Below, piece after piece: positions 1-43,300 of a DNA stretch of 64,000 bases. How positions within the stretch are numbered: the first letter of the stretch is position 1; the number at the start of each line of letters is the position of its first letter. The notes beneath the pieces were generated by a model. It worked only from the letters and a program-made list of their open reading frames with translations, was not told the DNA's origin and did no database searches. The translations under genes were made by a program, and so were the position numbers. Origin of the DNA: Raillietiella orientalis (Eukaryota); assembly GCA_036172245.1 (NCBI GenBank), contig JAYWIR010000057.1, positions 1-64,000 of the forward strand, read 5' to 3'.

Positions 1-3000
1 TCACATCCCGACTTCCTCCGAATCCCTTGCTCCACGAGAAGAAATCATAAGAGAACCGAACTGATTTCAAAAAGGGAGGATTGGTCTTGGTCTGGTTTTC
101 ATGGCAACCATTTTTGCAATGCACAGATCAAGTTTTTTTCCCTCCATCTTCCTTTTTCCGGTGCAAATTTGAGGGGTTTGGTGATTTCAAATCATTTTCT
201 ATGATGTCCATTCCATCGATGTGCTCCTTCCTTGCATCGGAACGGATTTCTTCCACTTTGGATGCAAATGCACCTTACTCACATCCCGACTTCCTCCGAA
301 TCCCTTCCTCCAGGAGAAGTAATCATAAGAGAACCTACCGTATTTGAAGAGAAGAGGATTGGTCTTAGTCTGGTTTTCATGGCAACCATTTTTGCAATGC
401 ACAGATCAAGTTTTTTTCCCTCCATCTTACTTTTTTCAGTGCAAATTTGCAGTGTTTGGTGATTTCAAATCATTTTCTATGATGTGGATTCGATCGTTTG
501 GCTCCTTCCGAGCATACTAACGGTTTCCTTCTCCTTTGGATGCAAATGCACCTTTCTCACATCCCGACGTCTTCCGAATCCCTTGCTCCACGAGAAGAAA
601 TCATAGGAGAGCCAACTAATTTCAAAACAGGATTGGTGTTAGTCTGGTTTTCATGGCAACCATTTTTGCAATGCAGAGATCAAGTTTTTCCCTCCATCTT
701 CCTTTTTTCAGTGCAAATTTGCAGTGTTTGGTGATTTCAAATCATTTTCTATGATGTCGATTCCATTGATGCCCTCCTTCCGAGCATCCGAACGGTTTCC
801 GTCCACTTTGGAAGCAAATGCACCTTAATCACATCCCCACTTCATCCGAATCCCTCCCTCAGGAGAAGTAATCATAAGAGAACCGACCGAATTTCAAGAG
901 AAGAGGATTGGTCTTAGTCTGGTTTTCATGGCAACCATTTTTGCAATTCACAGATCACGTTTTTCTCCCTCCATCTTCCTTTTTTCAGTGCAAATTTGCA
1001 GTGCTTGGTGATTTCAAATCATTTTCTATGATGTCGATTCCATCGATGCGCTCCTTCCGAGCAACCGAACGGTTTCCGTCCACTTTGGATGCAAATGCAC
1101 CTTAATCACATCCCCACTTCATCCGAATCCCTTGCTCCACGAGAAGAAATCATAGTAGAATCAACTTAATTTCAAGAGAAGAGGATTGGTGTTAGTCTTG
1201 TTTTCATGGCAACCATTTTTGCAATGCAGTGTTCAAGTTTTTTTCCCTCCATCTTCCTTTTTTCAGTGCAAATTTGCAGTGTTTGGTGATTTCAAATCAT
1301 TTTCTATGATGTCGATTCCATTGATGCCCTCCTTCCGAGCATCCGAACGGTTTCCGTCCACTTTGGATGCAAATGCACCTTAATCACATCCCCACTTCAT
1401 CCGAATCCCTTCCTCCAGGAGAAGAAATCATAAGAGAACCGACCGAATTTCAAGAGAAGAGGATTGGTCTTAGTCTGGTTTTCATGGCAACCATTTTTGC
1501 AATTCACAGATCACGTTTTTTTCCCTCCATCTTCCTTTTTTCAGTGCAAATTTGCAGTGTTTGGTGATTTCAAATCATTTTCTATGATGTCGATTCCATC
1601 GATGCGCTCCTTCCGAGCATCCTAACGGTTTCCGTCCACTTTGGATGCAAATGCACCTTAATCACATCCCCACTTCATCCGAATCCCTCCCTCCAGGAGA
1701 AGTAATCATAAGAGAACCGACCGAATTTCAAGAGAAGAGGATTGGTCTTAGTCTGGTTTTCATGGCAACCATTTTTGCAATTCACAGATCACGTTTTTCT
1801 CCCTCCATCTTCCTTTTTTCAGTGCAAATTTGCAGTGCTTGGTGATTTCAAATCATTTTCTATGATGTCGATTCCATCGATGCCCTCCTTCCGAGTAACC
1901 GAACGGTTTCCGTCCACTTTGGATGCAAATGCACCTTAATCACATCCCCACTTCATCCGAATCCCTTGCTCCACGAGAAGAAATCATAGTAGAATCAACT
2001 TAATTTCAAGAGAAGAGGATTGGTGTTAGTCTTGTTTTCATGGCAACCATTTTTGCAATGCAGTGTTCAAGTTTTTTTCCCTCCATCTTCCTTTTTTCAG
2101 TGCAAATTTGCAGTGTTTGGTGATTTCAAATCATTTTCTATGATGTCGATTCCATTGATGCCCTCCTTCCGAGCATCCGAACGGTTTCCGTCCACTTTGG
2201 AAGCAAATGCACCTTAATCACATCCCCACTTCATCCGAATCCCTCCCTCCAGGAGAAGTAATCATAAGAGAACCGACCGAATTTCAAGAGAAGAGGATTG
2301 GTCTTAGTCTGGTTTTCATGGCAACCATTTTTGCAATTCACAGATCACGTTTTTCTCCCTCCATCTTCCTTTTTTCAGTGCAAATTTGCAGTGCTTGGTG
2401 ATTTCAAATCATTTTCTATGATGTCGATTCCATTGATGCCCTCCTTCCGAGCATCCGAACGGTTTCCGTCCACTTTGGATGCAAATGCACCTTAATCACA
2501 TCCCCACTTCATCCGAATCCCTTCCTCCAGGAGAAGTAATCATAAGAGAACCTACCGTATTTGAAGAGAAGAGGATTGGTCCTAGTCTGGTTTTCATGGA
2601 AACCATTTTTGCAATTCACAGATCACGTTTTTTTCCCTCCATCTGACTTTTTTCAGTGCAAATTTGCAGTGTTTGGTGATTTCAAATCATTTTCTATGAT
2701 GTCGATTCCATCGATGCGCTCCTTCCGAGCATGCTAACGGTTTGCGTCCACTTTGGATGCAAATGCACCTTTCTCACATCCTGACTTCTTCCGAATCCCT
2801 TGCTCCACGAGAAGAAATCATAGTAGAATCAACTTAATTTCAAGAGAAGAGGATTGGTGTTAGTCTTGTTTTCATGGCAACCATTTTTGGAATGCAGAGA
2901 TCAAGTTTTTTTCCCTCCATCTTCCTTTTTTCAGTGCAGATTTGCAGTGTTTGGTGATTTCAAATCATTTTCTATGATGTCGATTCCATCGATGCGCTCC

Positions 3001-6000
3001 TTCCGAGCATCCGAACAATTTCCGTCCACTTTGGATGCAAATGCACCTTAATCACATCCCCACTTCATCCGAATCCCTTCCTCCAGGAGAAGTAATCATA
3101 AGAGAACCGACCGAATTTCAAGAGAAGAGGATTGGTCTTAGTCTGGTTTTCATGGCAACCATTTTTGCAATTCACAGATCACGTTTTTTTCCCTCCATCT
3201 GACTTTTTTCAGTGCAAATTTGCAGTGTTTGGTGATTTCAAATCATTTTCTATGATGTCGATTCCATCGATGCGCTCCTTCCGAGCATCCTAACGGTTTC
3301 CGTCCACTTTGGATGCAAATGCACCTTAATCACATCCCCACTTCATCCGAATCCCTTCCTCCAGGAGAAGAAATCATAAGAGAACCGACCGAATTTCAAG
3401 AGAAGAGGATTGGTCTTAGTCTGGTTTTCATGGCAACCATTTTTGCAATTCACAGATCACGTTTTTTTCCCTCCATCTGACTTTTTTCAGTGCAAATTTG
3501 CAGTGTTTGGTGATTTCAAATCATTTTCTATGATGTCGATTCCATCGATGCGCTCCTTCCGAGCATCCTAACGGTTTCCGTCCACTTTGGATGCAAATGC
3601 ACCTTAATCACATCCCCACTTCATCCGAATCCCTTCCTCCAGGAGAAGTAATCATAAGAGAACCGACCGAATTTCAAGAGAAGAGGATTGGTCTTAGTCT
3701 GGTTTTCATGGCAACCATTTTTGCAATTCACAGATCACGTTTTTCTCCCTCCATCTTCCTTTTTTCAGTGCAAATTTGCAGTGCTTGGTGATTTCAAATC
3801 ATTTTCTATGATGTCGATTCCATTGATGCCCTCCTTCCGAGCATCCGAACGGTTTCCGTCCACTTTGGATGCAAATGCACCTTAATCACATCCCCACTTC
3901 ATCCGAATCCCTTCCTCCAGGAGAAGTAATCATAAGAGAACCTACCGTATTTGAAGAGAAGAGGATTGGTCCTAGTCTGGTTTTCATGGAAACCATTTTT
4001 GCAATTCACAGATCACGTTTTTTTCCCTCCATCTGACTTTTTTCAGTGCAAATTTGCAGTGTTTGGTGATTTCAAATCATTTTCTATGATGTCGATTCCA
4101 TTGATGCCCTCCTTCCGAGCATCCGAACGGTTTCCGTCCACTTTGGATGCAAATGCACCTTAATCACATCCCCACTTCATCCGAATCCCTTCCTCCAGGA
4201 GAAGTAATCATAAGAGAACCTACCGTATTTGAAGAGAAGAGGATTGGTCCTAGTCTGGTTTTCATGGAAACCATTTTTGCAATTCACAGATCACGTTTTT
4301 TTCCATGCACCTTGCTTTTTTCAGTGCAAATTTGCAGTGTTTGGTGATTTCAAATCATTTTCTATGATGTCGATTCCATCGATGCGCTCCTTCCGAGCAT
4401 GCTAACGGTTTGCGTCCACTTTGGATGCAAATGCACCTTTCTCACATCCTGACTTCTTCCGAATCCCTTGCTCCACGAGAAGAAATCATAGTAGAATCAA
4501 CTTAATTTCAAGAGAACAGGATTGGTGTTAGTCTTGTTTTCATGGCAACCATTTTTGGAATGCAGAGATCAAGTTTTTTTCCCTCCATCTTCCTTTTTTC
4601 AGTGCAAATTTGCAGTGTTTGGTGATTTCAAATCATTTTCTATGATGTCGATTCCATTGATGCCCTCCTTCCGAGCATCCGAACGGTTTCCGTCCACTTT
4701 GGAAGCAAATGCACCTTAATCACATCCCCACTTCATCCGAATCCCTCCCTCCAGGAGAAGTAATCATAAGAGAACCGACCGAATTTCAAGAGAAGAGGAT
4801 TGGTCTTAGTCTGGTTTTCATGGCAACCATTTTTGCAATTCACAGATCACGTTTTTCTCCCTCCATCTTCCTTTTTTCAGTGCAAATTTGCAGTGCTTGG
4901 TGATTTCAAATCATTTTCTATGATGTCGATTCCATTGATGCCCTCCTTCCGAGCATCCGAACGGTTTCCGTCCACTTTGGATGCAAATGCACCTTAATCA
5001 CATCCCCACTTCATCCGAATCCCTTCCTCCAGGAGAAGTAATCATAAGAGAACCTACCGTATTTGAAGAGAAGAGGATTGGTCCTAGTCTGGTTTTCATG
5101 GAAACCATTTTTGCAATTCACAGATCACGTTTTTTTCCCTCCATCTGACTTTTTTCAGTGCAAATTTGCAGTGTTTGGTGATTTCAAATCATTTTCTATG
5201 ATGTCGATTCCATCGATGCGCTCCTTCCGAGCATGCTAACGGTTTGCGTCCACTTTGGATGCAAATGCACCTTTCTCACATCCTGACTTCTTCCGAATCC
5301 CTTGCTCCACGAGAAGAAATCATAGTAGAATCAACTTAATTTCAAGAGAACAGGATTGGTGTTAGTCTTGTTTTCATGGCAACCATTTTTGGAATGCAGA
5401 GATCAAGTTTTTTTCCCTCCATCTTCCTTTTTTCAGTGCAAATTTGCAGTGTTTGGTGATTTCAAATCATTTTCTATGATGTCGATTCCATAGATGCGCT
5501 CCTTCCGAGCATCCGAACGGTTTCCGTCCACTTTGGATGCAAATGCACCTTAATCACATCCCCACTTCATCCGAATCCCTTGCTCCACGAGAAGAAATCA
5601 TAGTAGAATCAACTTAATTTCAAGAGAAGAGGATTGGTGTTAGTCTTGTTTTCATGGCAACCATTTTTGCAATGCAGAGATCAAGTTTTTTTCCCTCCAT
5701 CTTCCTTTTTTCAGTGCAAATTTGCAGTGTTTGGTGATTTCAAATCATTTTCTATGATGTCGATTCCATTGATGCCCTCCTTCCGAGCATCCGAACGGTT
5801 TCCGTCCACTTTGGAAGCAAATGCACCTTAATCACATCCCCACTTCATCCGAATCCCTCCCTCCAGGAGAAGTAATCATAAGAGAACCGACCGAATTTCA
5901 AGAGAAGAGGATTGGTCTTAGTCTGGTTTTCATGGCAACCATTTTTGCAATTCACAGATCACGTTTTTCTCCCTCCATCTGACTTTTTTCAGTGCAAATT

Positions 6001-9000
6001 TGCAGTGTTTAGTGATTTCAAATCATTTTCTATGATGTCGATTCCATCGATGCGCTCCTTCCGAGCATCCTAACGGTTTCCGTCCACTTTGGATGCAAAT
6101 GCACCTTAATCACATCCCCACTTCATCCGAATCCCTTCCTCCAGGAGAAGAAATCATAAGAGAACCGACCTAATTTCAAGAGGGGAGGATTGGTCTTAGT
6201 CTGGTTTTCATGGCAACCATTTTTGCAATTCACAGATCACGTTTTTTTCCCTCCATCTGACTTTTTTCAGTGCAAATTTGCAGTGTTTGGTGATTTCAAA
6301 TCATTTTCTATGATGTCGATTCCATCGATGCGCTCCTTCCGAGCATCCGAACGGTTTCCGTCCACTTTGGATGCAAATGCACCTTAATCACATCCCCACT
6401 TCATCCGAATTCCTTCCTCCAGGAGAAGAAATCATAAGAGAACCGACCGAATTTCAAGAGAAGAGGATTGGTGTTAGTCTGGTTTTCATGTAAACCATTT
6501 TTGCAATTCACAGATCACGTTTTTTTCCCTCCATCTGACTTTTTTCAGTGCAAATTTGCAGTGTTTGGTGATTTCAAATCATTTTCTATGATGTCGATTC
6601 CATCGATGCGCTCCTTCCGAGCATGCTAACGGTTTGCGTCCACTTTGGATGCAAATGCACCTTTCTCACATCCTGACTTCTTCCGAATCCCTTGCTCCAC
6701 GAGAAGAAATCATAGTAGAATCAACTTAATTTCAAGAGAACAGGATTGGTGTTAGTCTTGTTTTCATGGCAACCATTTTTGGAATGCAGAGATCAAGTTT
6801 TTTTCCCTCCATCTTCCTTTTTTCAGTGCAAATTTGCAGTGTTTGGTGATTTCAAATCATTTTCTATGATGTCGATTCCATAGATGCGCTCCTTCCGAGC
6901 ATCCGAACGGTTTCCGTCCACTTTGGATGCAAATGCACCTTAATCACATCCCCACTTCATCCGAATCCCTTGCTCCACGAGAAGAAATCATAGTAGAATC
7001 AACTTAATTTCAAGAGAACAGGATTGGTGTTAGTCTTGTTTTCATGGCAACCATTTTTGGAATGCAGAGATCAAGTTTTTTTCCCTCCATCTTCCTTTTT
7101 TCAGTGCAAATTTGCAGTGTTTGGTGATTTCAAATCATTTTCTATGATGTCGATTCCATCGATGCTCTCCTTCCGAGCATCCGAACGGTTTCCGTCCACT
7201 TTGGATGCAAATGCACCTTAATCACATCCGCACTTCATCCGAATCCCTTCCTCCACGAGAAGAAATCATAAGAGAACCGACCTAATTTCAAGAAGGGAGG
7301 ATTGGTGTTAGTCTTGTTTTCATGGCAACCATTTTTGCAATGCAGTGTTCAAGTTTTTTTCCCTCCATCTTCCTTTTTTCAGTGCAAATTTGCAGTGTTT
7401 GGTGATTTCAAATCATTTTCTATGATGTCGATTCCATCGATGCGCTCCTTCCGAGCATCCGAACGCTTTCCGTCCCCTTTGGATGCAAATGCACCTTAAT
7501 CACATCCGCACTTCATCCGAATCCCTTCCTCCACGAGAAGAAATCATAAGAGAACCGACCTAATTTCAAGAAGGGAGGATTGGTGTTAGTCTTGTTTTCA
7601 TGGCAACCATTTTTGCAATGCAGTGTTCAAGTTTTTTTCCCTCCATCTTCCTTTTTTCAGTGCAAATTTGCAGTGTTTAGTGATTTCAAATCATTTTCTA
7701 TGATGTCGATTCCATCGATGCGCTCCTTCCGAGCATCCGAACGGTTTCCGTCCACTTTGGATGCAAATGCACCTTAATCACATCCCCACTTCATCCGAAT
7801 CCCTTCCTCCAGGAGAAGTAATCATAAGAGAACCGACCTAATTTCAAGAAGGGAGGATTGGTGTTAGTCTTGTTTTCATAGCAACCATTTTTGCAATGCA
7901 GTGTTCAAGTTTTTTTCCCTCCATCTTCCTTTTTTCAGTGCAAATTTGCAGTGTTTGGTGATTTCAAATCATTTTCTATGATGTCGATTCCATCGATGCG
8001 CTCCTTCCGAGCATGCTAACGGTTTGCGTCCACTTTGGATGCAAATGCACCTTTCTCATCCTGACTTCTTCCGAATCCCTTGCTCCACGAGAAGAAATCA
8101 TAGTAGAATCAACTTAATTTCAAGAGAACAGGATTGGTGTTAGTCTTGTTTTCATGGCAACCATTTTTGGAATGCAGAGATCAAGTTTTTTTCCCTCCAT
8201 CTTCCTTTTTTCAGTGCAAATTTGCAGTGTTTGGTGATTTCAAATCATTTTCTATGATGTCGATTCCATCGATGCTCTCCTTCCGAGCATCCGAACGGTT
8301 TCCGTCCACTTTGGATGCAAATGCACCTTAATCACATCCCCACTTCATCCGAATCCCTTCCTCCACGAGAAGAAATCATAAGAGAACCGACCTAATTTCA
8401 AGAGGGGAGGATTGGTCTTAGTCTGGTTTTCATGGCAACCATTTTTGCAATGCAGAGTTCAAGTTTTTTTCCCTCCATCTTCCTTTTTTCAGTGCAAATT
8501 TGCAGTGTTTGGTGATTTCAAATCATTTTCTATGATGTCGATTCCATCGATGCGCTCCTTCCGAGCATCCGAACGCTTTCCGTCCCCTTTGGATGCAAAT
8601 GCACCTTAATCACATCCGCACTTCATCCGAATCCCTTCCTCCACGAGAAGAAATCATAAGAGAACCGACCTAATTTCAAGAAGGGAGGATTGGTCTTAGT
8701 CTGGTTTTCATGGCAACCATTTTTGCAATTCACAGATCACAAGTTTTTTTCCCTCCATCTGACTTTTTTCAGTGCAAATTTGCAGTGTTTGGTGATTTCA
8801 AATCATTTTCTATGATGTCGATTCCATCGATGCGCTCCTTCCGAGCATCCTAACGGTTTCCGTCCACTTTGGATGCAAATGCACCTTAATCACATCCCCA
8901 CTTCATCCGAATCCCTTCCTCCAGGAGAAGAAATCATAAGAGAACCGACCGAATTTCAAGAGAAGAGGATTGGTCTTAGTCTGGTTTTCATGGCAACCAT

Positions 9001-12000
9001 TTTTGCAATTCACAGATCACGTTTTTTTCCCTCCATCTTACTTTTTTCAGTGCAAATTTGCAGTGTTTGGTGATTTCAAATCATTTTCTATGATGTCGAT
9101 TCCTTCGATGCGCTCCTTCCGAGCATCCGAACGGATTCCTTCCCCTTTGGATGCAAATACACCTTTATCACATCCTGACTTCTTCCGAATCCCTTGCTCC
9201 ACGAGAAGAAATCATAGTAGAATCAACCTAATTTCAAGAGAAGAGGATTGGTGTTAGTCTTGTTTTCATGGCAACCATTTTTGAAATGCAGAGATCAAGT
9301 TTTTTTCCCTCCACCTTCCTTTTTTCAGTGCAAATTTGCAGTGTTTGGTGATTTCAAATCATTTTCTATGATGTCGATTCCATCGATGCCCTCCTTCCGA
9401 GCATCCGAACGGTTTGCGTCCACTTTGGATGCAAATGCACCTTTCTCACATCCTGACTTCTTCCGAATCCCTTGCTCCACGAGAAGAAATCATAGTAGAA
9501 TCAACTTAATTTCAATAGAACAGGATTGGTGTTAGTCTTGTTTTCATGGCAACCATTTTTGAAATGCAGAGATCAAGTTTTTTTCCCTCCACCTTCCTTT
9601 TTTCAGTGCAAATTTGCCGTGTTTGGTGATTTCAAATCATTTTCTATGATGTCGATTCCATTGATGCCCTCCTCCCGAGCATCCGAACGGTTTCCGTCCA
9701 CTTTGGATGCAAATGCACCTTAATCACATCCCCACTTCATGCGAATCCCTTCCTCCAGGAGAAGAAATCATAAGAGAACCGACCGAATTTCAAGAGAAGA
9801 GGATTGGTCATAGTCTGGTTTTCATGGCTACCATTTTTGCAATTCACAGATCACGTTTTTTGCCCTCCATCTCACTTTTTTCAGTGCAAATTTGCAGTGT
9901 TTGGAGATTTCAAATCATTTTCTATGATGTCGATTCCTTCGATGCGCTCCTTCCGAGCATCCGAACGGATTCCTTCCCCTTTGGATGCAAATACACCTTT
10001 ATCACATCCGGACTTCTTCCGAATCCCTTGCTGCACGAGAAGAAATCATAGTAGAATCAACCTAATTTCAAGAGAAGAGGATTGGTGTTAGTCTTGTTTT
10101 CATGGCAACCATTTTTGGAATGCAGAGATCAAGTTTTTTTCCCTCCATCTTCCTTTTTTCAGTGCAAATTTGCAGTGTTTGGTGATTTCAAATCATTTTC
10201 TATGATGTCGATTCCATTGATGCCCTCCTTCCGAGCATCCGAACGGTTTCCGTCCACTTTGGATGCAAATGCACCTTAATCACATCCCCACTTCATCCGA
10301 ATCCCTTCCTCCAGGAGAAGAAATCATAAGAGAACCGACCGAATTTCAAGAGAAGAGGATTGGTGTTAGTCTTGTTTTCATGGCAACCATTTTTGGAATG
10401 CAGAGATCAAGTTTTTTTCCCTCCATCTTCCTTTTTTCAGTGCAAATTTGCAGTGTTTGGTGATTTCAAATCATTTTCTATGATGTCGATTCCATCGATG
10501 CCCTCCTTCCGAGCATCCGAACGGTTTCCGTCCACTTTGGATGCAAATGCACCTTAATCACATCCCCACTTCATCCGAATCCCTCCCTCCAGGAGAAGTA
10601 ATCATAAGAGAACCGACCGAATTTCAAGATCGGAGGATTGCTCTTATTCTGGTTATCATTGCAACCATTTTTGCAATTCAAAGATCAAGTTTTTTTTTCT
10701 CCATCTTCCTTTTTTCAGTGCAAATTTGCAGTGCTTGGTGATTTCAAATCATTTTCTATGATGTCGAATCCATCGATGCGCTCCTTCCGAGCATCCGAAC
10801 GGTTTCCGTCCACTTTGGATGCAAATGCACCTTAATCACATCCCCACTTCATCCGAATCCCTTCCTCCAGGAGAAGAAATCATAAGAGAACCGACCTAAT
10901 TTCAAGAAGGGAGGATTGGTCTTAGTCTGGTTTTCATGGCAACCATTTTTGCAATTCACAGATCACGTTTTTTGCCCTCCATCTCACTTTTTTCAGTGCA
11001 AATTTGCAGTGTTTGGAGATTTCAAATCATTTTCTATGATGTCGATTCCTTCGATGCGCTCCTTCCGAGCATCCGAACGGATTCCTTCCCCTTTGGATGC
11101 AAATACACCTTTATCACATCCTGACTTCTTCCGAATCCCTTGCTCCACGAGAAGAAATCATAGTAGAATCAACCTAATTTCAAGAGAAGAGGATTGGTGT
11201 TAGTCTTGTTTTCATGGCAACCATTTTTGGAATGCAGAGATCAAGTTTTTTTCCCTCCATCTTCCTTTTTTCAGTGCAAATTTGCAGTGTTTGGTGATTT
11301 CAAATCATTTTCTATGATGTCGATTCCATTGATGCCCTCCTTCCGAGCATCCGAACGGTTTCCGTCCACTTTGGATGCAAATGCACCTTAATCACATCCC
11401 CACTTCATCCGAATCCCTCCCTCCAGGAGAAGTAATCATAAGAGAACCGACCGAATTTCAAGATCGGAGGATTGCTCTTATTCTGGTTATCATTGCAACC
11501 ATTTTTGCAATTCAAAGATCAAGTTTTTTTTTCTCCATCTTCCTTTTTTCAGTGCAAATTTGCAGTGTTTGGTGATTTCAAATCATTTTCTATGATGTCG
11601 ATTCCATCGATGCGCTCCTTCCGAGCATCCGAACGGTTTCCGTCCACTTTGGATGCAAATGCACCTTAATCACATCCCCACTTCATCCGAATCCCTTCCT
11701 CCACGAGAAGAAATCATAAGAGAACCGACCTAATTTCAAGAAGGGAGGATTGGTCTTAGTCTGGTTTTCATGGCAACCATTTTTGCAATTCACAGATCAA
11801 GTTTTTTTCCCTCCACCTTCCTTTTTTCAGTGAAAATTTGCAGTGTTTGGTGATTTCAAATCATTTTCTATGATGTCGATTCATTCGATGCGCTCCTTCC
11901 GAGCATCCGAACGGATTCCGTCCCCTTTGGATGCAAATGCACCTTAATCACATTTCCACTTCATCCGAATCCCTTCCTCCAGGAGAAGAAATCATAAGAG

Positions 12001-30000: not shown

Positions 30001-33000
30001 CACCTTAATCACATCCCCACTTCATCCGAATCCCTTCCTCCACGTGGAGAAATCATAAGAGAACCGACCTAATTTCAAAAGGGCAGGATTGGTCTTAGTC
30101 TGGTTTTTATGGCAACCATTTTTGCAATTGAAAGATCGAGATTTTTCCCTCCATCTTCCTTTTTTCAGTGCAAATTTGCAGTGTTTGGTGATTTCAAATA
30201 ATTTTCTATGATGTCGATTCCATCGATGCGCTCCTTCCGAGCATCCGATCGGATTTCTTCCCCTTTGGATGCCAATGCACCTTTATCACATCCCCACTTT
30301 ATCCCAATCCCTTCCTCCACGTGAAGAAATCATAAGAGAACCGACCTAATTTCAAGAGAAGAGGATTGGTCTTAGTCTGGTTTTCATGGCAACCCTTTTT
30401 GCAATGCACAGTTCAAGTTTTTTTCCGTCCACCTTGCTTTTTTCAGTGCAAATTTGCAGTGTTTGGTGATTTCAAATCATTTTCTATGACGTCGATTCCA
30501 CCGATGTGCTCCTTCCGAGCATCCGAACGGTTTCCGTCCACTTTGGATGCAAATGCACCTTTATCACATCCCCACTTCATCCGAATCCCTTCCTAGAGGA
30601 GAAGAAATCATAAGGGAACCGACCTAATTTCAAAAGGGCAGGATTGGTCTTAGTCTGGTTTTCATGGCAACCATTTTTGCAATTCACAGTTCCATTTTTT
30701 TTTCCATGCACCTTCCTCTTTTCAGTGCAAATTTGCAGTGTTTGGTGATTTCAAATCATTTTCTATGATGTCGATTTTATCGATGCCCTCCTTCCGAGCA
30801 TCCGATCGGTATCCGTCCACTTTGGATGCAAATGCACCTTAATCACATCCCCACTTCATCCGAATCCCTTCCTCCACGTGAAGAAATCATAAGAGAACCG
30901 ACCTAATTTCAAAAAAGAAGGATTGGTCTTAGTCTGGTTTTTATGGCAACCATTTTTTCAATTGAAAGATCGAGATTTTTCCCTCCATCTTCCTTTTTTC
31001 AGTGCAAATTTGCAGTGTTTGGTGATTTCAAATAATTTTCTATGATGTCGATTCCATCGATGCGCTCCTTCCGAGCATCCGATCGGATTTCTTCCCCTTT
31101 GGATGCCAATGCACCTTTATCACATCCCCACTTCATCCGAATCCCTTCCTAGAGGAGAAGAAATCATAAGGGAACCGACCTAATTTCAAGAGGGGAGGAT
31201 TGGTCTTAGTCTGGTTTTCATGGCAACCCTGTTTGCAATGCGCAGTACAAATGTTTTTCCCTCCACCTTAATTTTTTCAATACAAATTTGCAGTGTTTGT
31301 TGATTTGAAATCATTTTCCATGATGTCGATTCCATCGATGCGCTCCTTCCGAGCATCCGAACGGTTTCCGTCCACTTTGGAAGCAAATGCACCTTAATCA
31401 CATCCCCACTTCATCCGAATCCCTCCCTCCAGGAGAAGTAATCATTAGAGAACCGACCGAATTTCAAGATCGGAGGATTGGTCTTAGTCTGGTTTTCATG
31501 GCAGCCATTTTTGCAATTCACAGTTCAAGTTTTTTTCCCTCCACCTTCCCTTTTCAGTGCAAATTTGCAGTGTTTGGTGATTTCAAATCATTTTCTATGA
31601 TGTCGATTCCACCGATGCGCTCCTTCCGAGCATCCGAACGGTTTCCGTCCCCTTTGGATGCAAATGCACCTTAATCACATCCCCACTTCATCGGAATCCC
31701 TTCCTCCACGTGAAGAAATCATAAGAGAAGCGACCTAATTTTGAAAGGGCAGGATTGGTCTTAGTCTGGTTTTCATGGCAACCATTTTTGCAATTGAAAG
31801 ATCGAGATTTTTCCCTCCATCTTCCTCTTTTCAGTGCAAATTTGCAGTGTTTGGTGATTTCAAATCATTTTCTATGATGTCGATTCCTTCGATGCGCTCC
31901 TTCCGAGCATCCGATCGGATTCCTTCCCCTATGGATGCCAATGCACCTTTATCACATCCCCACTTCATCCGAATCCCTTCCTCCAGGAGAAGTAATCATA
32001 AGAGAACCGACCGAATTTCAAGAGAAGAGGATTGGTCTTAGTCTGGTTTTCATGGCAACCATTTTTGCAATGCACAGTTCAAGTTTTTTTCCCTCCACCT
32101 TCCTTTTTTCAGTGCAAATTTGCAGTGTTTGGTGATTTCAAATCATTTTCTATGATGTCGATTCCACCGATGCGCTCCTTCCGAGCATCCGAACGGTTTC
32201 CGTCCACTTTGGATGCAAATGCACCTTAATCACATCCCCACTTCATCGGAATCCCTTCCTCCACGTGAAGAAATCATAAGAGAACCGACCTAATTTTGAA
32301 AGGGCAGGATTGGTCTTAGTCTGGTTTTCATGGCAACCATTTTTGCAATTGAAAGATCGAGATTTTTCCCTCCATCTTCCTTTTTTCAGTGCAAATTTGC
32401 AGTGTTTGGTGATTTCAAATAATTTTCTATGATGTCGATTCCATCGATGCGCTCCTTCCGAGCATCCGAACGGTTTCCGTCCACTTTGGATGCAAATGCA
32501 CCTTAATCACATCCCCACTTCATCGGAATCCCTTCCTCCACGTGAAGAAATCATAAGAGAAGCGACCTAATTTTGAAAGGGCAGGATTGGTCTTAGTCTG
32601 GTTTTCATGGCAACCATTTTTGCAATTGAAAGATCGAGATTTTTCCCTCCATCTTCCTCTTTTCAGTGCAAATTTGCAGTGTTTGGTGATTTCAAATCAT
32701 TTTCTATGATGTCGATTCCTTCGATGCGCTCCTTCCGAGCATCCGATCGGATTCCTTCCCCTATGGATGCCAATGCACCTTTATCACATCCCCACTTCAT
32801 CCGAATCCCTTCCTCCAGGAGAAGTAATCATAAGAGAACCGACCGAATTTCAAGAGAAGAGGATTGGTCTTAGTCTGGTTTTCATGGCAACCATTTTTGC
32901 AATGCACAGTTCAAGTTTTTTTCCCTCCACCTTCCTTTTTTCAGTGCAAATTTGCAGTGTTTGGTGATTTCAAATCATTTTCTATGATGTCGATTCCACC

Positions 33001-36000
33001 GATGCGCTCCTTCCGAGCATCCGAACGGTTTCCGTCCACTTTGGATGCAAATGCACCTTAATCACATCCCCACTTCATCGGAATCCCTTCCTCCACGTGA
33101 AGAAATCATAAGAGAACCGACCTAATTTCAAAAGGGCAGGATTGGTCTTAGTCTGGTTTTCATGGCAACCATTTTTGCAATTGAAAGATCGAGATTTTTC
33201 CCTCCATCTTCCTTTTTTCAGTGCAAATTTGCAGTGTTTGGTGATTTCAAATAATTTTCTATGATGTCGATTCCATCGATGCGCTCCTTCCGAGCATCCG
33301 ATCGGATTTCTTCCCCTTTGGATGCCAATGCACCTTTATCACATCCCCACTTCATCCGAATCCCTTCCTCCACGTGAAGAAATCATAAGAGAACCGACCT
33401 AATTTCAAGAGAAGAGGATTGGTCTTAGTCTGGTTTTCATGGCAACCCTTTTTGCAATGCGCAGTTCAAGTTTTTTTCCGTCCACCTTGCTTTTTTCAGT
33501 GCAAATTTGCAGTGTTTGGTGATTTCAAATCATTTTCTATGACGTCGATTCCACCGATGCGCTCCTTCCGAGCATCCGAACGGTTTCCGTCCACTTTGGA
33601 TGCAAATGCACCTTTATCACATCCCCACTTCATCCGAATCCCTTCCTAGAGGAGAAGAAATCATAAGGGAACCGACCTAATTTCAAGAGGGGAGGATTGG
33701 TCTTAGTCTGGTTTTCATGGCAACCCTTTTTGCAATGCGCAGTACAGATGTTTTTCCCTCCACCTTAATTTTTTCAATACAAATTTGCAGTGTTTGGTGA
33801 TTTCAAATCATTTTCTATGATGTCGATTCCATCGATGCGCTCCTTCCGAGCATCCGAACGGATTCCTTCCCCTTTGGATGCAAATGCACCTTTATCACAT
33901 CCCCACTTCATCCGAATCCCTTCCTCCACGTGAAGAAATCATAAGAGAACCGACCTAATTTCAAGAGAAGAGGATTGGTCTTAGTCTGGTTTTCATGGCA
34001 ACCATTTTTGCAATGCACAGTTCAAGTTTTTTTCCGTCCACCTTGCTTTTTTCAGTGCAAATTTGCAGTGCTTGGTGATTTCAAATCATTTTCTATGATG
34101 TCGATTCCATCGATGCCCTCCTTCCGAGCATCCGAACGGTTTCCGTCCACTTTGGATACAAATGCACCTTAATCACATCCCCACTTCATCCGAATCCCTA
34201 ACTCCAGGAAAAAAAATCTTAAGACAAACCGACCTAATTTCAAGTGGGTAGGATTAGTCTTAGTCTGGTTTTCATGGCAACCATTTTTGCAATGCACAGT
34301 TCAAGTTTTTTTCCGTCCACCTTGCTTTTTTCAGTGCAAATTTGCAGTGCTTGGTGATTTCAAATCATTTTCTATGATGTCGATTCCATCGAAGCCCTCC
34401 TTCCGTGCATCCGAACGGTTTCCGTCCACTTTGGATGCAAATGCACCTTAATCACATCCCCACTTCATCCCAATCCCTCCCTCCAGGAGAAGAAATCATA
34501 AGAGAACCGACCGAATTTCAAGAGGGGAGGATTGGTCTTAGTCTGGTTTTCATGGCAACCATTTTTGCAATTGAAAGATCAAGATTTTTCCCTCCATCTT
34601 CCTTTTTTCAGTGCAACTTTGCAGTGTTTGGTGATTTCAAATCATTTTCTATGACGTCGATTCCATCGATGCGCTCCTTCCGAGCATCCGAACGGTTTCC
34701 GTCCACTTTGGATGCAAATGCACCTTAATCACATCCCCACTTCATCCGAAACCCTTCCTCCACGTGAAGAAAGCATAAGAGAACCGACCTAATTTCAAAA
34801 GGGGAGGATTGGTCTAAGTCTCGTTTTCATGGCAACCATTTTAGCAATTCACAGTTCAAGTTTTTTTCCATGCACCTTCCTCTTTTCAGTGCAAATTTGC
34901 AGTGTTTAGTGATTTCAAATCATTTTCTATGATGTCGATTCCTTCGATGCGCTCCTTCCGAGCATCCGATCGGATTCCTTCCCCTTTGGATGCCAATGCA
35001 CCTTTATCACATTTCCACTTCATTCGCATCCCTTCCTCCAGGAGAAGTAATCATAAGAGAACCGACCGAATTTCAAGAGAAGAGGATTGGTCTTAGTCTG
35101 GTTTTCATGGCAACCATTTTTGCAATTGAAAGATCAAGATTTTTCCCTCCATCTTCCTTTTTTCAGTGCAAATTTGCAGTGTTTGGTGATTTCAAATCAT
35201 TTTCTATGATGTCGATTCCTTCGATGCGCTCCTTCCGAGCATCCGAACGGATTCCTTACCCTTTGGATGCAAATATACCTTTATCACATCCCCACTTCAT
35301 CCGAATCCCTCCCTCCAGGAGAAGAAATCATAAGACAACCGACCTAATTTCAAGAGGGTAGGATTGGTCTTAGTCTGGTATTCATGGCAACCATTTTTGC
35401 AATGCACAGTTCAAGTTTTTTTCCGTCCACCTTGCTTTTTTCAGTGCAAATTTTCAGTGTTTGGTGATTTCAAATCATTTTCTATGATGACGATTCCATC
35501 GATGCCCTCCTTGCGAGCATCCGAACGGTTTCCGTCCCCTTTGGATGCCAATGCACCTTTATCACATTCCCACTTCATCCGAATCCCTTCCTCCAGGAGA
35601 AGTAATCATAAGAGAACCGACCCAATTTCAAGAGAAGAGGATTGGTCTTAGTCTGGTTTTCATGGCAACCATTTTTGCAATGCACAGTTCAAGTTTTTTT
35701 CCCTCCACCTTCCTTTTTTCAGTGCAAATTTTCAGTGTTTGGTGATTTCAAATCATTTTCTATGATGACGATTCCATCGATGCGCTCCTTCCGAGCATCC
35801 GAACGGTTTCCGTCCACTTTGGATGCAAATGCACCTTAATCACATCCCCACTTCATCCGAATCCCTTCCTCCACGTGAAGAAATCATAAGAGAACCGACC
35901 TAATTTCAAAAGGGGAGGATTGGTCTTAGTCTGGTTTTCATGGCAACCCTTTTTGCAATGCGCAGTTCAGGTTTTTTCCCCTCCACCTTCCTTTTTTCAG

Positions 36001-39000
36001 CGCAAATTTGCAGTGTTTGGTGATTTCAAATCATTTTCTATGATGTCGATTCCTTCGATGCGCTCCTTCCGAGCATCCGATCGATTTCCGTCCACTTTGG
36101 ATGCAAATGCACCTTAATCACATCCCCACTTCATCCGAATCCCTTCCTCCACGAGAAGAAATCATAAGAGAACCGACCTAATTTCAAAAGGGGAGGATTG
36201 GTCTTAGTCTGGTTTTCATGGCAACCATTTTTGCAATGCAAAGATCAAGTTTTTTTCCCTCCATCTTCCTTTTTTCAGTGCAAATTTGCAGTGTTTGGTG
36301 ATTTCAAATCATTTTCTATGATGTCGATTCCATCGATGCGCTCCTTCCGAGCATCCGAACGGTTTCCGTCCACTTTGGAAGCAAATGCACCTTAATCACA
36401 TCCCCACTTCATCCGAATCCCTCCCTCCAGGAGAAGTAATCATAAGAGAACCGACCGAATTTCAAGAGGGGAGGATTGGTCTTAGTCTGGTTTTCATGGC
36501 AACCATTTTTGCAATGCACAGTTCAAGTTTTTTTCCCTCCACCTTGCTTTTTTCAGTGCAAATTTGCAGTGCTTGGTGATTTCAAATCATTTTCTATGAT
36601 GTCGATTCCATCGATGCGCTCCTTCCGAGCATCCGAACGGTTTCCGTCCCCTTTGGATGCAAATGCACCTTAATCACATCCCCACTTCATCCGAATCCCT
36701 TCCTCCACGAGAAGATATCATAAGAGAACCGACCTAATTTCAAGAGGGGAGGATTGGTCTTAGTCTGGTTTTCATGGCAACCATTTTTGCAATGCAGAGT
36801 TCAAGTTTTTTTCCCTCCACCTTCCTTTTTTCAGTGCAAATTTGCAGTGCTTGGTGATTTCAAATCATTTTCTATGATGTCGATTCCATCGATGCCCTCC
36901 TTCCGAGCATCCGAACGGTTTCCGTCCACTTTGGATGCAAATGCACCTTAATCACATCCCCACTTCTTCCGAATCCCTAACTCCAGGAGAACAAATCTTA
37001 AGACAAACCGACCTAATTTCAAGAGGGTAGGATTAGTCTTAGTCTGGTTTTCATGGCAACCATTTTTGGAATGCACAGTTCAAGTTTTTTTCCGTGTACC
37101 TTGCTTTTTTCAGTGCAAATTTTCAGTGCTTGGTGATTTCAAATCATTTTCTATGACGTCGATTCCATCGATGCCCTCCTTCCGAGCATCCGAACGGTTT
37201 CCGTCCACTTTGGATGCAAATGCACCTTAATCACATCCCCACTTCTTCCGAATCCCTAACTCCAGGAGAAAAAATCTTAAGACAAACCGACCTAATTTCA
37301 AGAGGGTAGGATTAGTCTTAGTCTGGTTTTCATGGCAACCATTTTTGCAATGCACAGTTCAAGTTTTTTTCCGTCCACCTTGCTTTTTTCAGTGCAAATT
37401 TTCAGTGCTTGGTTATTTCAAATCATTTTCTATGATGTCGATTCCATCGATGCGCTCCTTCCGTGCATCCGAACGGTTTCGGTCCACTTTGGATGCAAAT
37501 GCACCTTAATCACATCCCCACTTCATCCCAATCCCTCCCTCCAGGAGAAGAAATCATAAGAGAACCGACCGAATTTCAAGAGGGGAGGATTGGTCTTAGT
37601 CTGGTTTTCATGGCAACCATTTTTGCAATGCACAGTTCAAGTTTTTTTGCGTCCACCTTGCTTTTTTCAGTGCAAATTTGCAGTGTTTGGTGATTTCAAA
37701 TCATTTTCTATGATGTCGATTCCATCGATGCCCTCCTTCCGAGCATCCGAACGGATTCCGTCCACTTTGGATGCAAATGCACCTTAATCACATCCCCACT
37801 TCATCCGAATCCCTCCCTCCAGGAAAAGAAATCATAAGAGAACCGACCGAATTTCAAGAGGGGAGGATTGGTCTTAGTCTGGTTTTCATGGCAACCATTT
37901 TAGCAATTGAAAGATCAAGATTTTTCCCTCCATCTTCCTTTTTTCAGTGCAACTTTGCAGTGTTTGGTGATTTCAAATCATTTTCTATGACGTCGATTCC
38001 ATCGATGCCCTCCTTCCGAGCATCCGAACGGTTTCCGTCCACTTTGGATACAAATGCACCTTAATCACATCCCCACTTCATCCGAATCCCTAACTCCAGG
38101 AAAAAAAATCTTAAGACAAACCGACCTAATTTCAAGAGGGTAGGATTAGTCTTAGTCTGGTTTTCATGGCAACCATTTTTGCAATGCACAGTTCAAGTTT
38201 TTTTCCGTGTACCTTGCTTTTTTCAGTGCAAATTTGCAGTGCTTGGTGATTTCAAATCATTTTCTATGATGTCGATTCCTTCGATGCGCTCCTTCCGAGC
38301 ATCCGAACGGATTCCGTCCACTTTGGATGCAAATGCACCTTAATCACATCCCCACTTCATCCGAATCCCTCCCTCCAGGAAAAGAAATCATAAGAGAACC
38401 GACCGAATTTCAAGAGGGGAGGATTGGTCTTAGTCTGGTTTTCATGGCAACCATTTTAGCAATTGAAAGATCAAGATTTTTCCCTCCATCTTCCTTTTTT
38501 CAGTGCAACTTTGCAGTGTTTGGTGATTTCAAATCATTTTCTATGACGTCGATTCCATCGATGCCCTCCTTCCGAGCATCCGAACGGTTTCCGTCCACTT
38601 TGGATACAAATGCACCTTAATCACATCCCCACTTCATCCGAATCCCTCCCTCCAGGAAAAGAAATCATAAGAGAACCGACCGAATTTCAAGAGGGGAGGA
38701 TTGGTCTTAGTCTGGTTTTCATGGCAACCATTTTAGCAATTGAAAGATCAAGATTTTTCCCTCCATCTTCCTTTTTTCAGTGCAACTTTGCAGTGTTTGG
38801 TGATTTCAAATCATTTTCTATGACGTCGATTCCATCGATGCCCTCCTTCCGAGCATCCGAACGGATTCCGTCCACTTTGGATGCAAATGCACCTTAATCA
38901 CATCCCCACTTCATCCGAATCCCTTCCTCCACGTGAAGAAATCATAAGAGAACCGACCTAATTTCAAAAGGGCAGGATTGGTCTTAGTCTGGTTTTCATG

Positions 39001-39760
39001 GCAACCATTTTTGCAATTCACAGTTCCATTTTTTTTTCCATGCACCTTCCTCTTTTCAGTGCAAATTTGCAGTGTTTGGTGATTTCAAATCATTTTCTAT
39101 GATGTCGATTCCATCGATGCCCTCCTTCCGTGCATCCGAACGGTTTCCTTCCCCTCAGGATGCAAATGCACCTTAATCACATCCCCACTTCATCCCAATC
39201 CCTCTCTCCAGGAGAAGAAATCATAAGAGAACCGACCGAATTTCAAGAGGGTAGGATTAGTCTTAGTCTGGTTTTCATGGCAACCATTTTTGCAATGCAC
39301 AGTTCAAGTTTTTTTCCGTCCACCTTGCTTTTTTCAGTGCAAATTTGCAGTGTTTGGTGATTTCAAATCATTTTCTATGATGTCGATTCCATCGATGCCC
39401 TCCTTCCGTGCATCCGAACGGTTTCCGTCCACTTTGGATGCAAATGCACCTTAATCACATCCCCACTTCATCCCAATCCCTCTCTCCAGGAGAAGAAATC
39501 ATAAGAGAACCGACCGAATTTCAAGAGGGGAGGATTGGTCCTAGTCTGGTTTTGATGGCAACCATTTTTGCAATTGAAAGATCAAGATTTTTCCCTCCAT
39601 CTTCCTTTTTTCAGTGCAAATTTGCTGTCTTTCGTGATTTCAAATCATTTTCTATGATGCCGCTTCCATGCATGCGCTCCTTCCGTGCTTCCGAGCGGAT
39701 TCCTTTCATCGTTGATGCAAATGCACCTTTATCACATTTTCACTGCATCCGCATTAATTG
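1..39760. repeat. Tandem satellite DNA array, ~278-bp monomer, ~143 copies
   Basis: The unit (GGTTTTCATGGCAACC...TGCAAATTTGCA...TGATTTCAAATCATTTTCTATGA...GGATGCAAATGCACC...) recurs continuously. The recurring short ORFs are spaced 278 bp or multiples of it (908, 1186, 1742, 2020, 2298...). 277- and 279-bp indel variants occur. The array continues off the left edge. Confidence 0.99.
95..108. promoter_or_regulatory. RFX X-box-like motif GTTTTCATGGCAAC (representative copy; one per satellite monomer)
   Basis: Matches the degenerate X-box consensus RTHNYYWTRRNRAC at all 14 positions, with one perfect half-site (GTTGCC on the minus strand). Binding is not demonstrated. Confidence 0.4.
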
Positions 39761-40621
39761 GAGAAAGTTAAAAAATCAAAAAAGGCCCAAACTACTTTTT
39801 GGAGGTGCACTTCGTCCTTTGACTTGTTTTCATGGCAACCATTTTTGCTGTGATGATAACTAGTTTATTCTTCCGAAATTCCTTTTGTGATCCAAATTTC
39901 CAGTGTTTTTTGATTCCAAATGATTTCCAACTGCGTCCAATCCACAATTGCTCTTTTTCGGAGCATACTCGCGGGTCACTTTGCACGCTGATGCAACTGC
40001 TGTTTTTTCACATGCCATCTGCATCCGTATCAATCGGAAAAAGTGAAAAAATCACAACATGCCCATACTTATTCAAGGAGGTGCACATTGGTTTTTGTCT
40101 TGTTTTTATAGCAACCTTCTTTGCAATCCACAGATAAAGTTTTTTTCCCCTCCATATCCCTTTTTTTAGGGCAAATTTGCAGTGTTTGGTTATTTGAAAT
40201 GATTTTGAATTCTGTCGATTCCAACACTGTCCTCCTTGGAGCTTTCCTATGCATCCATTTCCTTGGTAATTCAAATTCAATTTTGTAACATCCCTATCCA
40301 TTGAATCCAGTTAAGAAATCACTGGAGGACGTAATTTTACTATGTGTAGGCCCACTGGATTCTTTGCTGTTTTCATGGCAACCAGTTTTGCTATGATAAG
40401 ATAAACCTTTTTCCTCCTTATATCTTGTCTGGTCCAAATTACCTTTGTTTTGTGATATTTAATTTGTAATTTTTCCGTTTCCATAAATGCCCTCTTTCGC
40501 GTGTTCCCTTAGTCTATTTCTACGGAGATGCAATTGCGCATTTATCAAATCCCCGCTGCATCTCAATCTCTTGGAAACTTTGGGAGAATCGGTTGGGTCC
40601 CTTGCTTCTTTAGGGCTGGGC
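39761..40621. repeat. Highly diverged (old) satellite monomers at the array edge
   Basis: Anchors gttttcatggcaac (39826), gtttttatagcaac (40102) and gttttcatggcaac (40369), spaced 276 and 267 bp. Residual gcaaatttgcagtgtttgg at ~40171 and gatgcaa motifs. Confidence 0.9.
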
Positions 40622-41729
40622 CTTAATTAGATCTCCAGGAGTCCGTTTCCGCGTGTGGAAAAATGAACTTTTCCAGCGATGTGAACTTCTGCGTCCGTCG
40701 AGAAAGGAACGCTGTCCAGCCTTTGTGGGAGGTCGTTTCCAATCCTCGAAAGCTCTTGTCCCTGTGTTGCCTTTTTTCAGAGAAGCCAGAGATAGCCAAG
40801 GGCAGTTTTCCTATTTAGTTTCGTGCCACATCGTAGGCAGGAAAAAAAATTGATGAATCCGTGGGCGTCCCGGGAACTAGCGGACGCTACAATCCCGAGT
40901 GTCCCGCCAAATGGAATTGTGTGATGGGAGAGCTGCTCTGCATGTTTCCGGAGAAGGTGAAGTGGCCCCATCGTATTGATACAGTAGCACCCTCTCTTTG
41001 GATTGGCAGGATACGGCGCTGCTTGTGCTCCATTGGGGACTTTCGAGCTGATTACTCCCGTCTCACTGGACACTGGGAGATTGGATGCCCATTGTACAGA
41101 GTGTTGGGAAAGGTAGACCTTCCCCCTCTTACTAATCGAATGTTTTGCCCTCCGTTGCTCGTGTTAGCGACTCTCTTTGGCCATAAGTGTAGAGGTTGGC
41201 GACCCTAAAAACATTTTTCATCGCCTCCTGATACGGAACTCCCTGCCAGCTGCCGCGTCTGTTGCGGTTCCCTGCTGCATACTAGGATTACTGGACACGC
41301 GGAACGCGTCGATAAGAGACCACTGTAGACGTTATGCCATACACTGGGCGGTCATCTCCATGGAGAAGGCTTCCCGCTGGCGCCGGCTGAGTAAAATTCA
41401 TTGAGCGCTTGTTCGTATCCGTATCCAAAGGCAGAGGTCTCCCGTATGCAAACAGTGATCCCTTCTTTTCCCTCCGCTTCCCTTGAAACACTGTTCCTCA
41501 AGCGTTTTTACTTTTTGGGTTTTTTTTTTCTTTTTTTTTCCCGTTCCCTTCGCCAGTGGAGAAGGCCTTACCGGCATACTAGTCGGGAAGGACCATTGCA
41601 TAAGATAAGAAAATGAGAACAATGTGTTCTGACAGGAGCACAAATACAATTAATCAATAATTGACAGCAATTAATAATTGTAAAAATGTTTTTTTCATAA
41701 CAAAAGCCCCGGCTTATCCGGGTGAAAGA
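40622..41729 (+). mobile_element. 5'-truncated Tx1/L1-clade non-LTR retrotransposon (ORF2 C-terminus + 3'UTR)
   Basis: Collinear with 59.9-60.95 kb (ggagaaggtgaagtg, gcccattgt, gccat.cactgg.cg). Degenerate C-terminal zinc finger (CPLYRV), T-rich 3'UTR and terminal motif ATAACAAAAGCCCCGGC. Flanked by TTAGGGCTGGGC / TTAGGGTGGGGC. Confidence 0.85.
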
Positions 41730-42218
41730 TTAGGGTGGGGCACAGTGTCCTCTGCGTGGTTTTCATGGCAGCCAATTTTTGGAAATGAAAAGAGAGAGTT
41801 CTTTTTCACACTGATTCCTTATGTGGTCCGCATTTTCAGTGTTTGCTGTTTTGAAATCAATTCCAAATCCGCTAATCTCACCAATGCACTCTTTCCTTAC
41901 TTATCTATGCATCCATTTCTACGGAGATGCAAATACGCGAAAAACACATCCGCAGTGCATCCTTATCTCTTGGAAACAGTGGAAAAATCAGTTGACACCC
42001 GAACTTCATTAGGGGGGGACACAGTGTAGTCCGTTCTGTTTTCATGGCTACAATTTTTGGAAATGAAAAGATAAAGTTTTGTTTTTTTTTTTTTTTGATT
42101 TATTATGTTGTTCAAATCTCCAGTGTTTTATATTTTAAATCAATCTCAAATCGGCTGAATTCACCATTGCACTCTTGCTCCACTTCACTCCACTCCACTC
42201 ATTTAAATAGAGATGCAA
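41730..42218. repeat. Last ~1.7 diverged satellite monomers
   Basis: gttttcatggcagc (41759) and gttttcatggctac (42038) are 279 bp apart. They share atttctacggagatgcaa and atctcttggaaac with the 40.5-kb monomer. Confidence 0.85.
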
Positions 42219-42569
42219 CGAAAGGCCTTCTCTGTGGTGCCAACGTTTTGGCATGTTTAAAAAGTCGTAGGGATGCTCTTTTCTCACCTCATGTTTTTTT
42301 TATGCGGCTTCTTAGCCTCTGGATTGGGAGCACCGGGACTCTTGATCTTTCTTACCTTTTTATGCCAGGATACCCTTCTTTCCCTTTCCTGAATGGCAGC
42401 ATTCTGCCAGGAAGCTTTAATGTTCCCATTGCTGGCTCTCCTTTCTGTTTTCCAGGATCTCGGTGCACATTGATTTTGTGTGCCTGTGTTTGTTCCAGGG
42501 GTGTCACTCGACCCAGTGACCATCATCTGGCGTCTATTCATCATGTGTTTTTTACAGGAAGCCGTCTAA

Positions 42570-43300
42570 TGTGATCGACCTGACAGTAGCAATGGTAGAT
42601 AAGAGGTTTGTTGGGAGAGCCGGTAAGTTTCGAAAATTCGTGGGGAAGCTTCCGATAGGTACATTCGGAATATTATGAGCTGCAACAGCTTCTGCTCAAT
42701 TGTCGAATGTCATTCCATGTGATCTCCCTTCGAGCTGGTCCACGTTTAAGATGTGGCAGTCCTTTTATTTTCCTGTTGGCAGCGTTGATAATGGTTTAAG
42801 GGGGAACTCTCCTAATATGTCCGTGTGGATTGAATGAGCATTCACCTCACGGCGTATTAGGTGTCCTATCTGGGCGGTCAAATACGGGTCGCAACCGCAC
42901 TCTCATGATCCGTCGCAAGGAATGGTCTGAGAGCAACGATGGGATGTTTGGGAAGACTTGCACACTTGGCACTATGTTTGCGATCTCCGTTGACTGTTTC
43001 CGCACTTCATGGGAACGTATAGAGAATGGACTATTACATCTTCAGAAAATTGGTGTTTAATTACTTTTGTAAACTCATATTTTCTTGATGCTTTTGGCGA
43101 CCCAGTCAGCTGGGACAGAATCATTTCTGCTAAGATCTCTGCGGAAGTATGGTGTTTCTCGAAAATCCATTAAGAGCATCATCCTCTGAACGCTAATTAG
43201 AAATCGCATGCGAAATCTCCTAAGACGGTGAAGCAAATGAAGGAATGAAGTGTACGTGACTGCTATGAAATTTGCTGCCTCTGTTGGGATGGAAGCTGGA
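42570..43300 (-). mobile_element. Possible very decayed non-LTR reverse transcriptase fragment
   Basis: Minus-strand peptides EISHAISN, LKRGPARREITWNDI and TSYLPLLLS loosely resemble the pre-RT 'EI..AI', 'APG.DGIT' and 'YRPISLL' motifs in the expected order. Many stops. Confidence 0.3.

Follow-up and report, generated by a model that had tools for sequence, protein, structure and literature searches.

CENP-B is a transposase-derived centromere protein. Its box in primate alpha satellite is, according to the accessible portion of 10.64898/2026.05.25.727640, a short element kept at regular spacing in divergent monomers, and the 278-bp satellite superfamily analysed here likewise keeps a box across divergent monomers. 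Compared with the CENP-B box, the present one resembles the site of a transcription factor (RFX), occurs once per 278-bp monomer and is known here from sequence alone. Alpha satellite is also said to be layered, with older, diverged monomers at the array edges, as in the window described below. In the accessible text on Meloidogyne, very divergent monomers have a single conserved box in common, and this box shows a degree of dyad symmetry, as here (the alphaCenH3 19-bp box, PMC8097292; Box 1/2 of M. chitwoodi/fallax, PMC3694981), and the arrays again lie at scaffold ends. The Meloidogyne monomers are not uniform in length, and in M. chitwoodi the boxes are located at junctions, whereas the monomers here are colinear at 275-281 bp (compared with the available parts of PMC8097292 and PMC3694981). 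Unlike in Meloidogyne, junctions in the present arrays neither avoid nor favour the box, which matches the consensus of a known factor.

With the X-box promoter element, as far as PMC2375033, PMC10530576 and 10.1101/2021.02.03.429678 are accessible, our box shares a 14-bp imperfect inverted repeat, an AT spacer and one perfect half-site, and with the 'ideal' C. elegans X-box it further shares the G1/T3 and A/C end positions. It differs in occurring as thousands of tandem copies rather than as single sites near ciliary gene starts, and in a second half-site that, in the modal box, is two mismatches from RGYAAC. RFX proteins are master regulators of ciliary genes. Sequence-specific, bulk binding to satellites is known for Pax3/Pax9 on mouse major satellite and for D1 and Prod in Drosophila, with roles in heterochromatin or clustering. 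A search with most subscription papers and supplements outside its scope found no report of RFX on satellite DNA or of a 278-bp arthropod satellite, and the accessible parts of PMC11293539 and PMC3245922 add nothing on RFX at satellites. It is rare for the binder of a satellite box to be guessable from sequence and directly testable; the candidate RFX has a solved, near-identical DNA-binding domain, and three natural variants of the box exist.

The window, the 64,000-nucleotide stretch analysed here (G000:C57:1-64000), comes from a 210-Mb assembly of 491 contigs. Positions 1..39751 hold a homogeneous 278-bp satellite array of lineage A on the forward strand, cut by the contig start (TRF: period 278, 143.1 copies, 92% matches). 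The array has no array-wide higher-order repeat (lag identities 0.915-0.923 at lags 1-15). Weak local higher-order periodicity was seen at 1-9425 and 19410-28878, with best lags of 9 and 13 monomers (0.946-0.948 vs ~0.92). No clear internal sub-repeat was found inside the monomer, the best shift scoring 0.311 against a mean of 0.258±0.018. An origin of the satellite from a structured RNA or a tRNA was discarded, with no Rfam family in 38000-43000 and no tRNA across the window.

The X-box-like 14-mer first appears at 95..108 on the forward strand and then once per monomer to 39549. When in-register sites with at most three mismatches to GTTTTCATGGCAAC were counted, 148 were present up to 42051, 117 of them exact, with a spacing of 267-280 bp except across one insertion. 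The first-pass annotation had placed GTTTTCATGGCAAC once in every monomer over this range, and its coordinates and motif proved correct. The consensus RTHNYYWTRRNRAC fits 135 of the 148 sites on the forward strand and 137 on either strand. The variants that the annotation listed as recurrent hold for GTTTTTATGGCAAC (8 copies), GTTTTCATGGAAAC (4) and GTATTCATGGCAAC (4) but not for GTTTTCATAGCAAC, which occurs once in the window. Read on the reverse strand, the box is GTTGCC-AT-GAAAAC, one perfect RFX half-site and one imperfect half.

Beyond the homogeneous array, an older layer occupies 39696..40621 on the forward strand and comprises three full monomers (boxes at 39826, 40102 and 40369) plus an incomplete monomer that stops at model column 115, as delimited by a motif-masked HMM. 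These monomers are 0.67-0.80 identical to cluster 18 and 0.57-0.70 to the core consensus. The layer is interrupted by a dispersed-repeat insertion of ~1.1 kb at 40622..41728 (strand not assigned), which splits one monomer; it matches, at 65-72%, window positions 60123-60406 and loci L051, L034, L050, L032 and L102, and probably derives from a LINE 3' end. Model columns 103-115 are present on both sides of it, a candidate diverged target-site duplication. Sequence resembling this insertion also adjoins satellite on contigs C122, C1, C245 and C54. The remainder of the split monomer (box at 41759) and one further old monomer (box at 42038) follow on the forward strand at 41729..42220, with HMM matches at 41729-41902 and 41908-42187 and the end set by eye. 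The last of these is intermediate between the two lineages A and B of the superfamily, being 0.70 identical to cluster 18, 0.64 to B clusters and 0.57 to the core. The flank at 42221..64000, without strand assignment, contains no long ORFs (longest 217 aa) and holds broken retroelement pieces, including a reverse-transcriptase fragment at 55586-55969 on the reverse strand (RVT_1, E 5.4e-8), the only one of nine window ORFs scanned for which a family was found.

The annotation had described the edge boxes as intact or nearly so. The boxes at 39826 and 40369 are exact, that at 40102 carries two changes and still fits the consensus, and that at 42038 fits on the reverse strand, but the box at 41759 breaks it. 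The five edge monomers are 53-68% identical to the core consensus, and no 14-mer in them is better kept than the box (0.943 vs a mean of 0.586, with monomers cut by motif position). In the 143 core monomers it reaches 0.984 against a mean of 0.947 and ranks 37 of 278, which excludes the box as the best-kept stretch within the core array. The picture of edge monomers as decayed core copies has to be replaced: they are relics of an older subfamily, and the one present on C228 and C245 is closer to them (0.67-0.80) than the core is, four of the five being full-length matches. Because the edge monomers form an older layer, the contrast between edge and core reflects subfamily turnover, not slower decay of the box.

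Across the assembly, the satellite forms non-coding, head-to-tail arrays of 275-281-bp monomers on many contigs, in related but diverged subfamilies. Exact counts gave 2023 copies of the window's box, 2210 of a GGTAAC variant and 938 of a GGYTAC variant, 5,171 in total, compared with 1, 2 and 4 for the respective reversed-pattern controls; these three exact variants account for at least 1.44 Mb. In a sample of contig starts taken at fixed steps and blind to sequence, the satellite was found at 22 of 60 small-contig starts. Since 86 of the 169 monomers sampled in this way carry one of the first two variants exactly, the superfamily is estimated at ~8,300 monomers, or 2.3 Mb, ~1% of the assembly. 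A profile HMM in which the box and three flanking columns per side were masked returned 619 matches, of which 557 near-full monomers were kept, and average-linkage clustering at 25% yielded 26 clusters, 11 with three or more members. The 11 clusters fall into the two colinear lineages A and B, whose identity to each other, the box excluded, is 45-61%; compared with lineage B, the clusters of the window and of C1 reach 45-50%. Monomer length stays at 275-281 bp in all arrays, with hardly any indels despite ~50% divergence; arithmetically, 278 bp corresponds to ~26.5 helical turns and two monomers to about three nucleosome repeats. An octamer-like element, ATGCAAAT, is kept only in lineage A.

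Retention of the box is seen between these subfamilies. Over the 11 subfamily consensuses (557 monomers, motif-masked HMM) the box scored 0.948, compared with 0.787 for the next non-overlapping block and 0.646 expected from matched base composition, and invariant columns make up 12 of 14 in the box compared with 64 of 277 overall; no second block is kept as well as the box. The consensuses are related, so the permutation P of this test is optimistic. The margin shrinks when de-replicated monomers are scored individually (0.79 for the box, 0.74 for the next block), and the total number of parsimony changes, 17.5 per column against 20.6, is not significantly reduced. Splitting the changes by extent of spread reconciles the strong consensus signal with this small margin. 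In a test of 19 windows along the monomer, each with a separate tree built without that window from 245 representatives, single-tip changes in the box numbered 208 against 222±31, but changes common to at least 5 tips only 8 against 43±9 and those common to at least 10 tips 3 against 28±7. As the motif had served to retrieve several of the arrays, the test was repeated with nothing but the blind sample (169 monomers and 106 representatives from 22 of the 60 contig starts), in which the box ranked 1 of 264, with 69 single changes (62±11) and 5 shared ones (21±4). Blind and BLAST-found arrays together (202 representatives) gave 163 single changes (160±16) and 10 shared ones (36±7). The P value corrected for scanning all windows, by column shuffling, was 0.032 for the blind set and 0.006 for the blind and BLAST-found set.

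The box mutates at background in single copies, and its variants seldom sweep into amplified lineages. A mutation cold spot is excluded by single-tip box changes equal to background in both tree sets, and assembly error cannot explain these changes, because one array (L063) is 99% identical to its consensus. The claim that the box outlasts the rest of the repeat stands in that it is best kept across diverged monomers, in motif-blind samples too, and falls for single copies, which decay at background; the finding named beforehand as fatal to it, motif columns no better conserved than others in diverged monomers, did not materialise in either setting. In some arrays the box is unprotected, with ranks of 165, 135 and 215 of 264 in clusters 5, 6 and 16. 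The per-column profile of deep changes places the left edge of constraint at X-box position 1, sharp and not tapering, and extends the constrained block two bases (CA) past the X-box; the degenerate X-box positions 3-4 are fixed as firmly as invariant ones. It is a 14-16-bp block that is retained at the level of arrays. Judged by these comparisons, the box is a real, constrained X-box-like element within an otherwise ordinary satellite superfamily. An element that mutates freely in single copies and rarely spreads is direct sequence evidence for array-level selection or biased amplification, and array-level constraint on satellites is a long-standing open point.

It is improbable that the box has no function and is by chance the slowest stretch of an ageing satellite, aided by shared ancestry and the choice of arrays. 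Such an origin would agree with a scan-corrected P of only 0.03 in the purely blind set, with the small per-monomer margin and the unremarkable total of changes per column, and with the core-array rank of 37 of 278. The profile and a spaced pattern outside the box could also miss far-diverged box-less subfamilies, both having been trained on known ones; the pattern revealed no box-less array among the first 100 matches listed (C1 to the start of C57), and it is a weak control, having missed three of eight known array sites on large contigs (C11, C40 and the second C1 array). However, the position of the box was named in advance of the tests, the result repeats in blind samples, and normal single-copy mutation combined with four- to fivefold fewer shared changes is unlike a slow site; base composition predicts 20.5 shared box changes where 5 were observed.

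Very unlikely is an explanation in which the DNA itself keeps the box, either as a hairpin or cruciform dyad or as a recombination or conversion point homogenised between subfamilies. The box is an imperfect palindrome, pairing at 7 of 9 positions in the lineage of the window, and in the accessible text a dyad has been proposed for the Meloidogyne 19-bp box (PMC8097292) and Meloidogyne satellites have conserved boxes at their junctions (PMC3694981). Nevertheless, the dyad score is only 5-7 of 9 while a better lineage-A dyad (8 of 9) is not kept, folding energies of -2.1 and -0.5 kcal/mol rule out a strong hairpin, and the left edge of constraint does not taper. A junction hot spot at the box likewise finds no support: of 33 array ends located mid-monomer, columns 128-151 contain 2, where ~3 are expected. 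Boxes inside one array all have the same orientation. Inversion junctions, at which arrays on opposite strands meet, were seen at L015:5019-5029 (C23), L043:5861-5884 (C59), L034:4836-4838 (C1) and L086:433-443, none of them at the box.

We infer that a protein reads the box, and whether this protein is an RFX we regard as evenly poised. RFX proteins recognise GTNRCC N0-3 RGYAAC, or GTTRCY as a monomer site, with a specificity conserved across animals and fungi (accessible part of PMC10530576). The C. elegans X-box is described as a 14-bp form with an AT spacer (available text of 10.1101/2021.02.03.429678), and the degenerate X-box RYYNYY N1-3 RRNRAC as not predictive by itself (available text of PMC2375033). 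The satellite box agrees with this degenerate form; RTHNYYWTRRNRAC as a string is absent from the accessible parts of PMC3245922 and 10.1101/2021.02.03.429678. Using consensus strings rather than position weight matrices, we found that RTHNYYWTRRNRAC fits 554 of 726 monomers on either strand and all 22 blind array consensuses, 18 of them forward. The strict form GTNRCC N1-3 RGYAAC does not extend over both halves, one half being perfect in 133 of the 148 window sites. On the reverse strand the box family reads GT[T/A][G/A]CC-AT-GAAAAC, and the two changes that define large subfamilies sit on N and R of GTNRCC; a third subfamily change (C122) alters the imperfect half and breaks RTHNYYWTRRNRAC, and the variant with 938 copies no longer contains the monomer site GTTRCY, agreeing with GTNRCC only. 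Among shuffled monomers, RTHNYYWTRRNRAC matches 1.8%, GTHNYY-AT-RGYAAC 0.03% and the loosest published X-box 9.5%. When shared and single changes were divided into those tolerated by the RFX pattern and those breaking it, one of nine set-by-consensus combinations was significant (whole set, RTHNYYWTRRNRAC, shared meaning at least 5 tips: tolerated changes made up 12 of 15 shared ones and 127 of 245 single ones, P 0.029), the others giving P 0.12-0.67, among them 0.21 for the blind set and 0.13-0.62 for the Laurencon consensus. The observed-to-expected ratio of box changes was 0.76 for breaking and 1.03 for tolerated ones. The RFX identity of the box is suggestive only.

These data also bear on the possibility, which we hold to be unlikely though real, that another sequence-specific protein, CENP-B-like or satellite-binding, binds and keeps the box and that its X-box likeness is coincidental. 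Such a protein would account equally for the tree pattern of shared and single changes, and would suit a constraint that includes positions 3-4, where the X-box is degenerate, and the two bases following it, a largely non-significant RFX-pattern test and the ease with which the loosest X-box arises in shuffled monomers; many motif families could presumably be matched post hoc. Coincidence is harder to reconcile with the rarity of a perfect RGYAAC half with AT spacer in shuffled monomers (0.03%), with a constrained block that begins exactly at X-box position 1, and with both large-subfamily changes lying on N and R of GTNRCC.

The host encodes an RFX1-3-type gene with both domains intact (RFX DNA-binding domain, encoded at G000:C19:192905-193132, E 1.1e-32; BCD domain, E 3e-109), and its DNA-contacting recognition wing, RTRRLGTRGNSKYHYYG, is identical to that of human RFX1 (1DP7). 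A second, more distant RFX gene is present in the genome. Perfect X-box palindromes occur 14 times genome-wide compared with none in the control and ~3 expected by arithmetic, an excess that hints weakly at RFX sites in use in the genome; two of the 14 look like one repeat. No ciliary gene was recognised near the 13 non-satellite palindromes, and no ciliary Pfam family was found among 278 ORFs, a subset in which exons may be short, around 20 dispersed X-box-type sites. RTHNYYWTRRNRAC was likewise found at none of four ciliary loci (three B9-domain genes and IFT20) within ~1.5-kb flanks, the true gene starts being uncertain. The B9-domain and IFT20 genes (L133-L137) are present and strongly diverged. 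The one perfect palindrome within a satellite monomer, at G000:C1:12170049-12170062 (L034), arose by two changes and did not spread. It may reflect template switching in a quasi-palindrome.

Our tentative preference is that an old 278-bp superfamily keeps its single 14-16-bp X-box-like box as an RFX1-3-type site that would help heterochromatin packaging. One lost box among thousands would be invisible to selection, so that individual copies could decay freely, but once a box-less variant had swept an array, RFX occupancy would be lost over kilobases and the array would be selected against or out-amplified. Purely by analogy, RFX dimers spaced at 278 bp might recruit repressive enzymes in likely pericentromeric DNA. 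Human RFX1 recruits SUV39H1 and can recruit DNMT1 and HDAC1 (available text of PMC3046540). Were the binder an RFX, a packaging role would have some edge over transcription, since the surroundings of the arrays are dead retroelements at assembly breaks and since, again by analogy, human RFX1 has these recruiting abilities. If RFX does bind, a developmental transcription factor may double as an organiser of repeat DNA or be titrated by ~1% of the genome; with a landing site in satellites, this gene regulator would gain an undescribed job on repeat DNA.

That RFX acts instead as an activator, driving satellite transcription in the germ line or in ciliated cells so that transcribed, box-bearing monomers are amplified or give rise to small RNAs, seems rather improbable. 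The same sequence evidence would apply as for the packaging role, the box has a single orientation within each array, and in C. elegans X-box variants placed in tandem were enough to give weak expression of a reporter (accessible part of 10.1101/2021.02.03.429678). On the other hand, the missing Rfam match in 38000-43000 and tRNA in the window, and the lack of a second equally kept block as a core promoter, speak against this role. A further reading, possible but doubtful, would make RFX in this lineage a CENP-B-like satellite protein whose phased X-boxes, thousands of them along (peri)centromeric arrays, are preserved by selection at the level of entire arrays. Satellite X-boxes would then outnumber strong dispersed sites many times over, and satellite copy number could tune chromosome organisation as well as the RFX left free for ciliary and sperm genes.

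Satellite arrays lie at or within ~50 kb of contig ends on C1, C7, C11, C23, C34, C40, C57 and C59. TTAGG is the arthropod telomere repeat, and a tract of it ends C13, which together with the RFX genes suggests an arthropod genome; the last 9.5 kb of this telomere-bearing end, the one such end examined, contain no satellite, and a subtelomeric position of the arrays is not supported at this single telomere. A second satellite of 180 bp, unmatched by the 278-bp profile, occurs at L039:1-689 (start of C11) and at L081, L082, L092 and L103; on C11 the distance to a 281-bp array is 1.4 kb. A local 464-bp unit at L019:875-2003 (C122) consists of a full monomer and a 187-bp truncated one. Isolated pieces of one to two monomers with the box are found inside large contigs at L026 (C16), L032 (C54), L046 (C4), L047 (C25) and L048 (C33).
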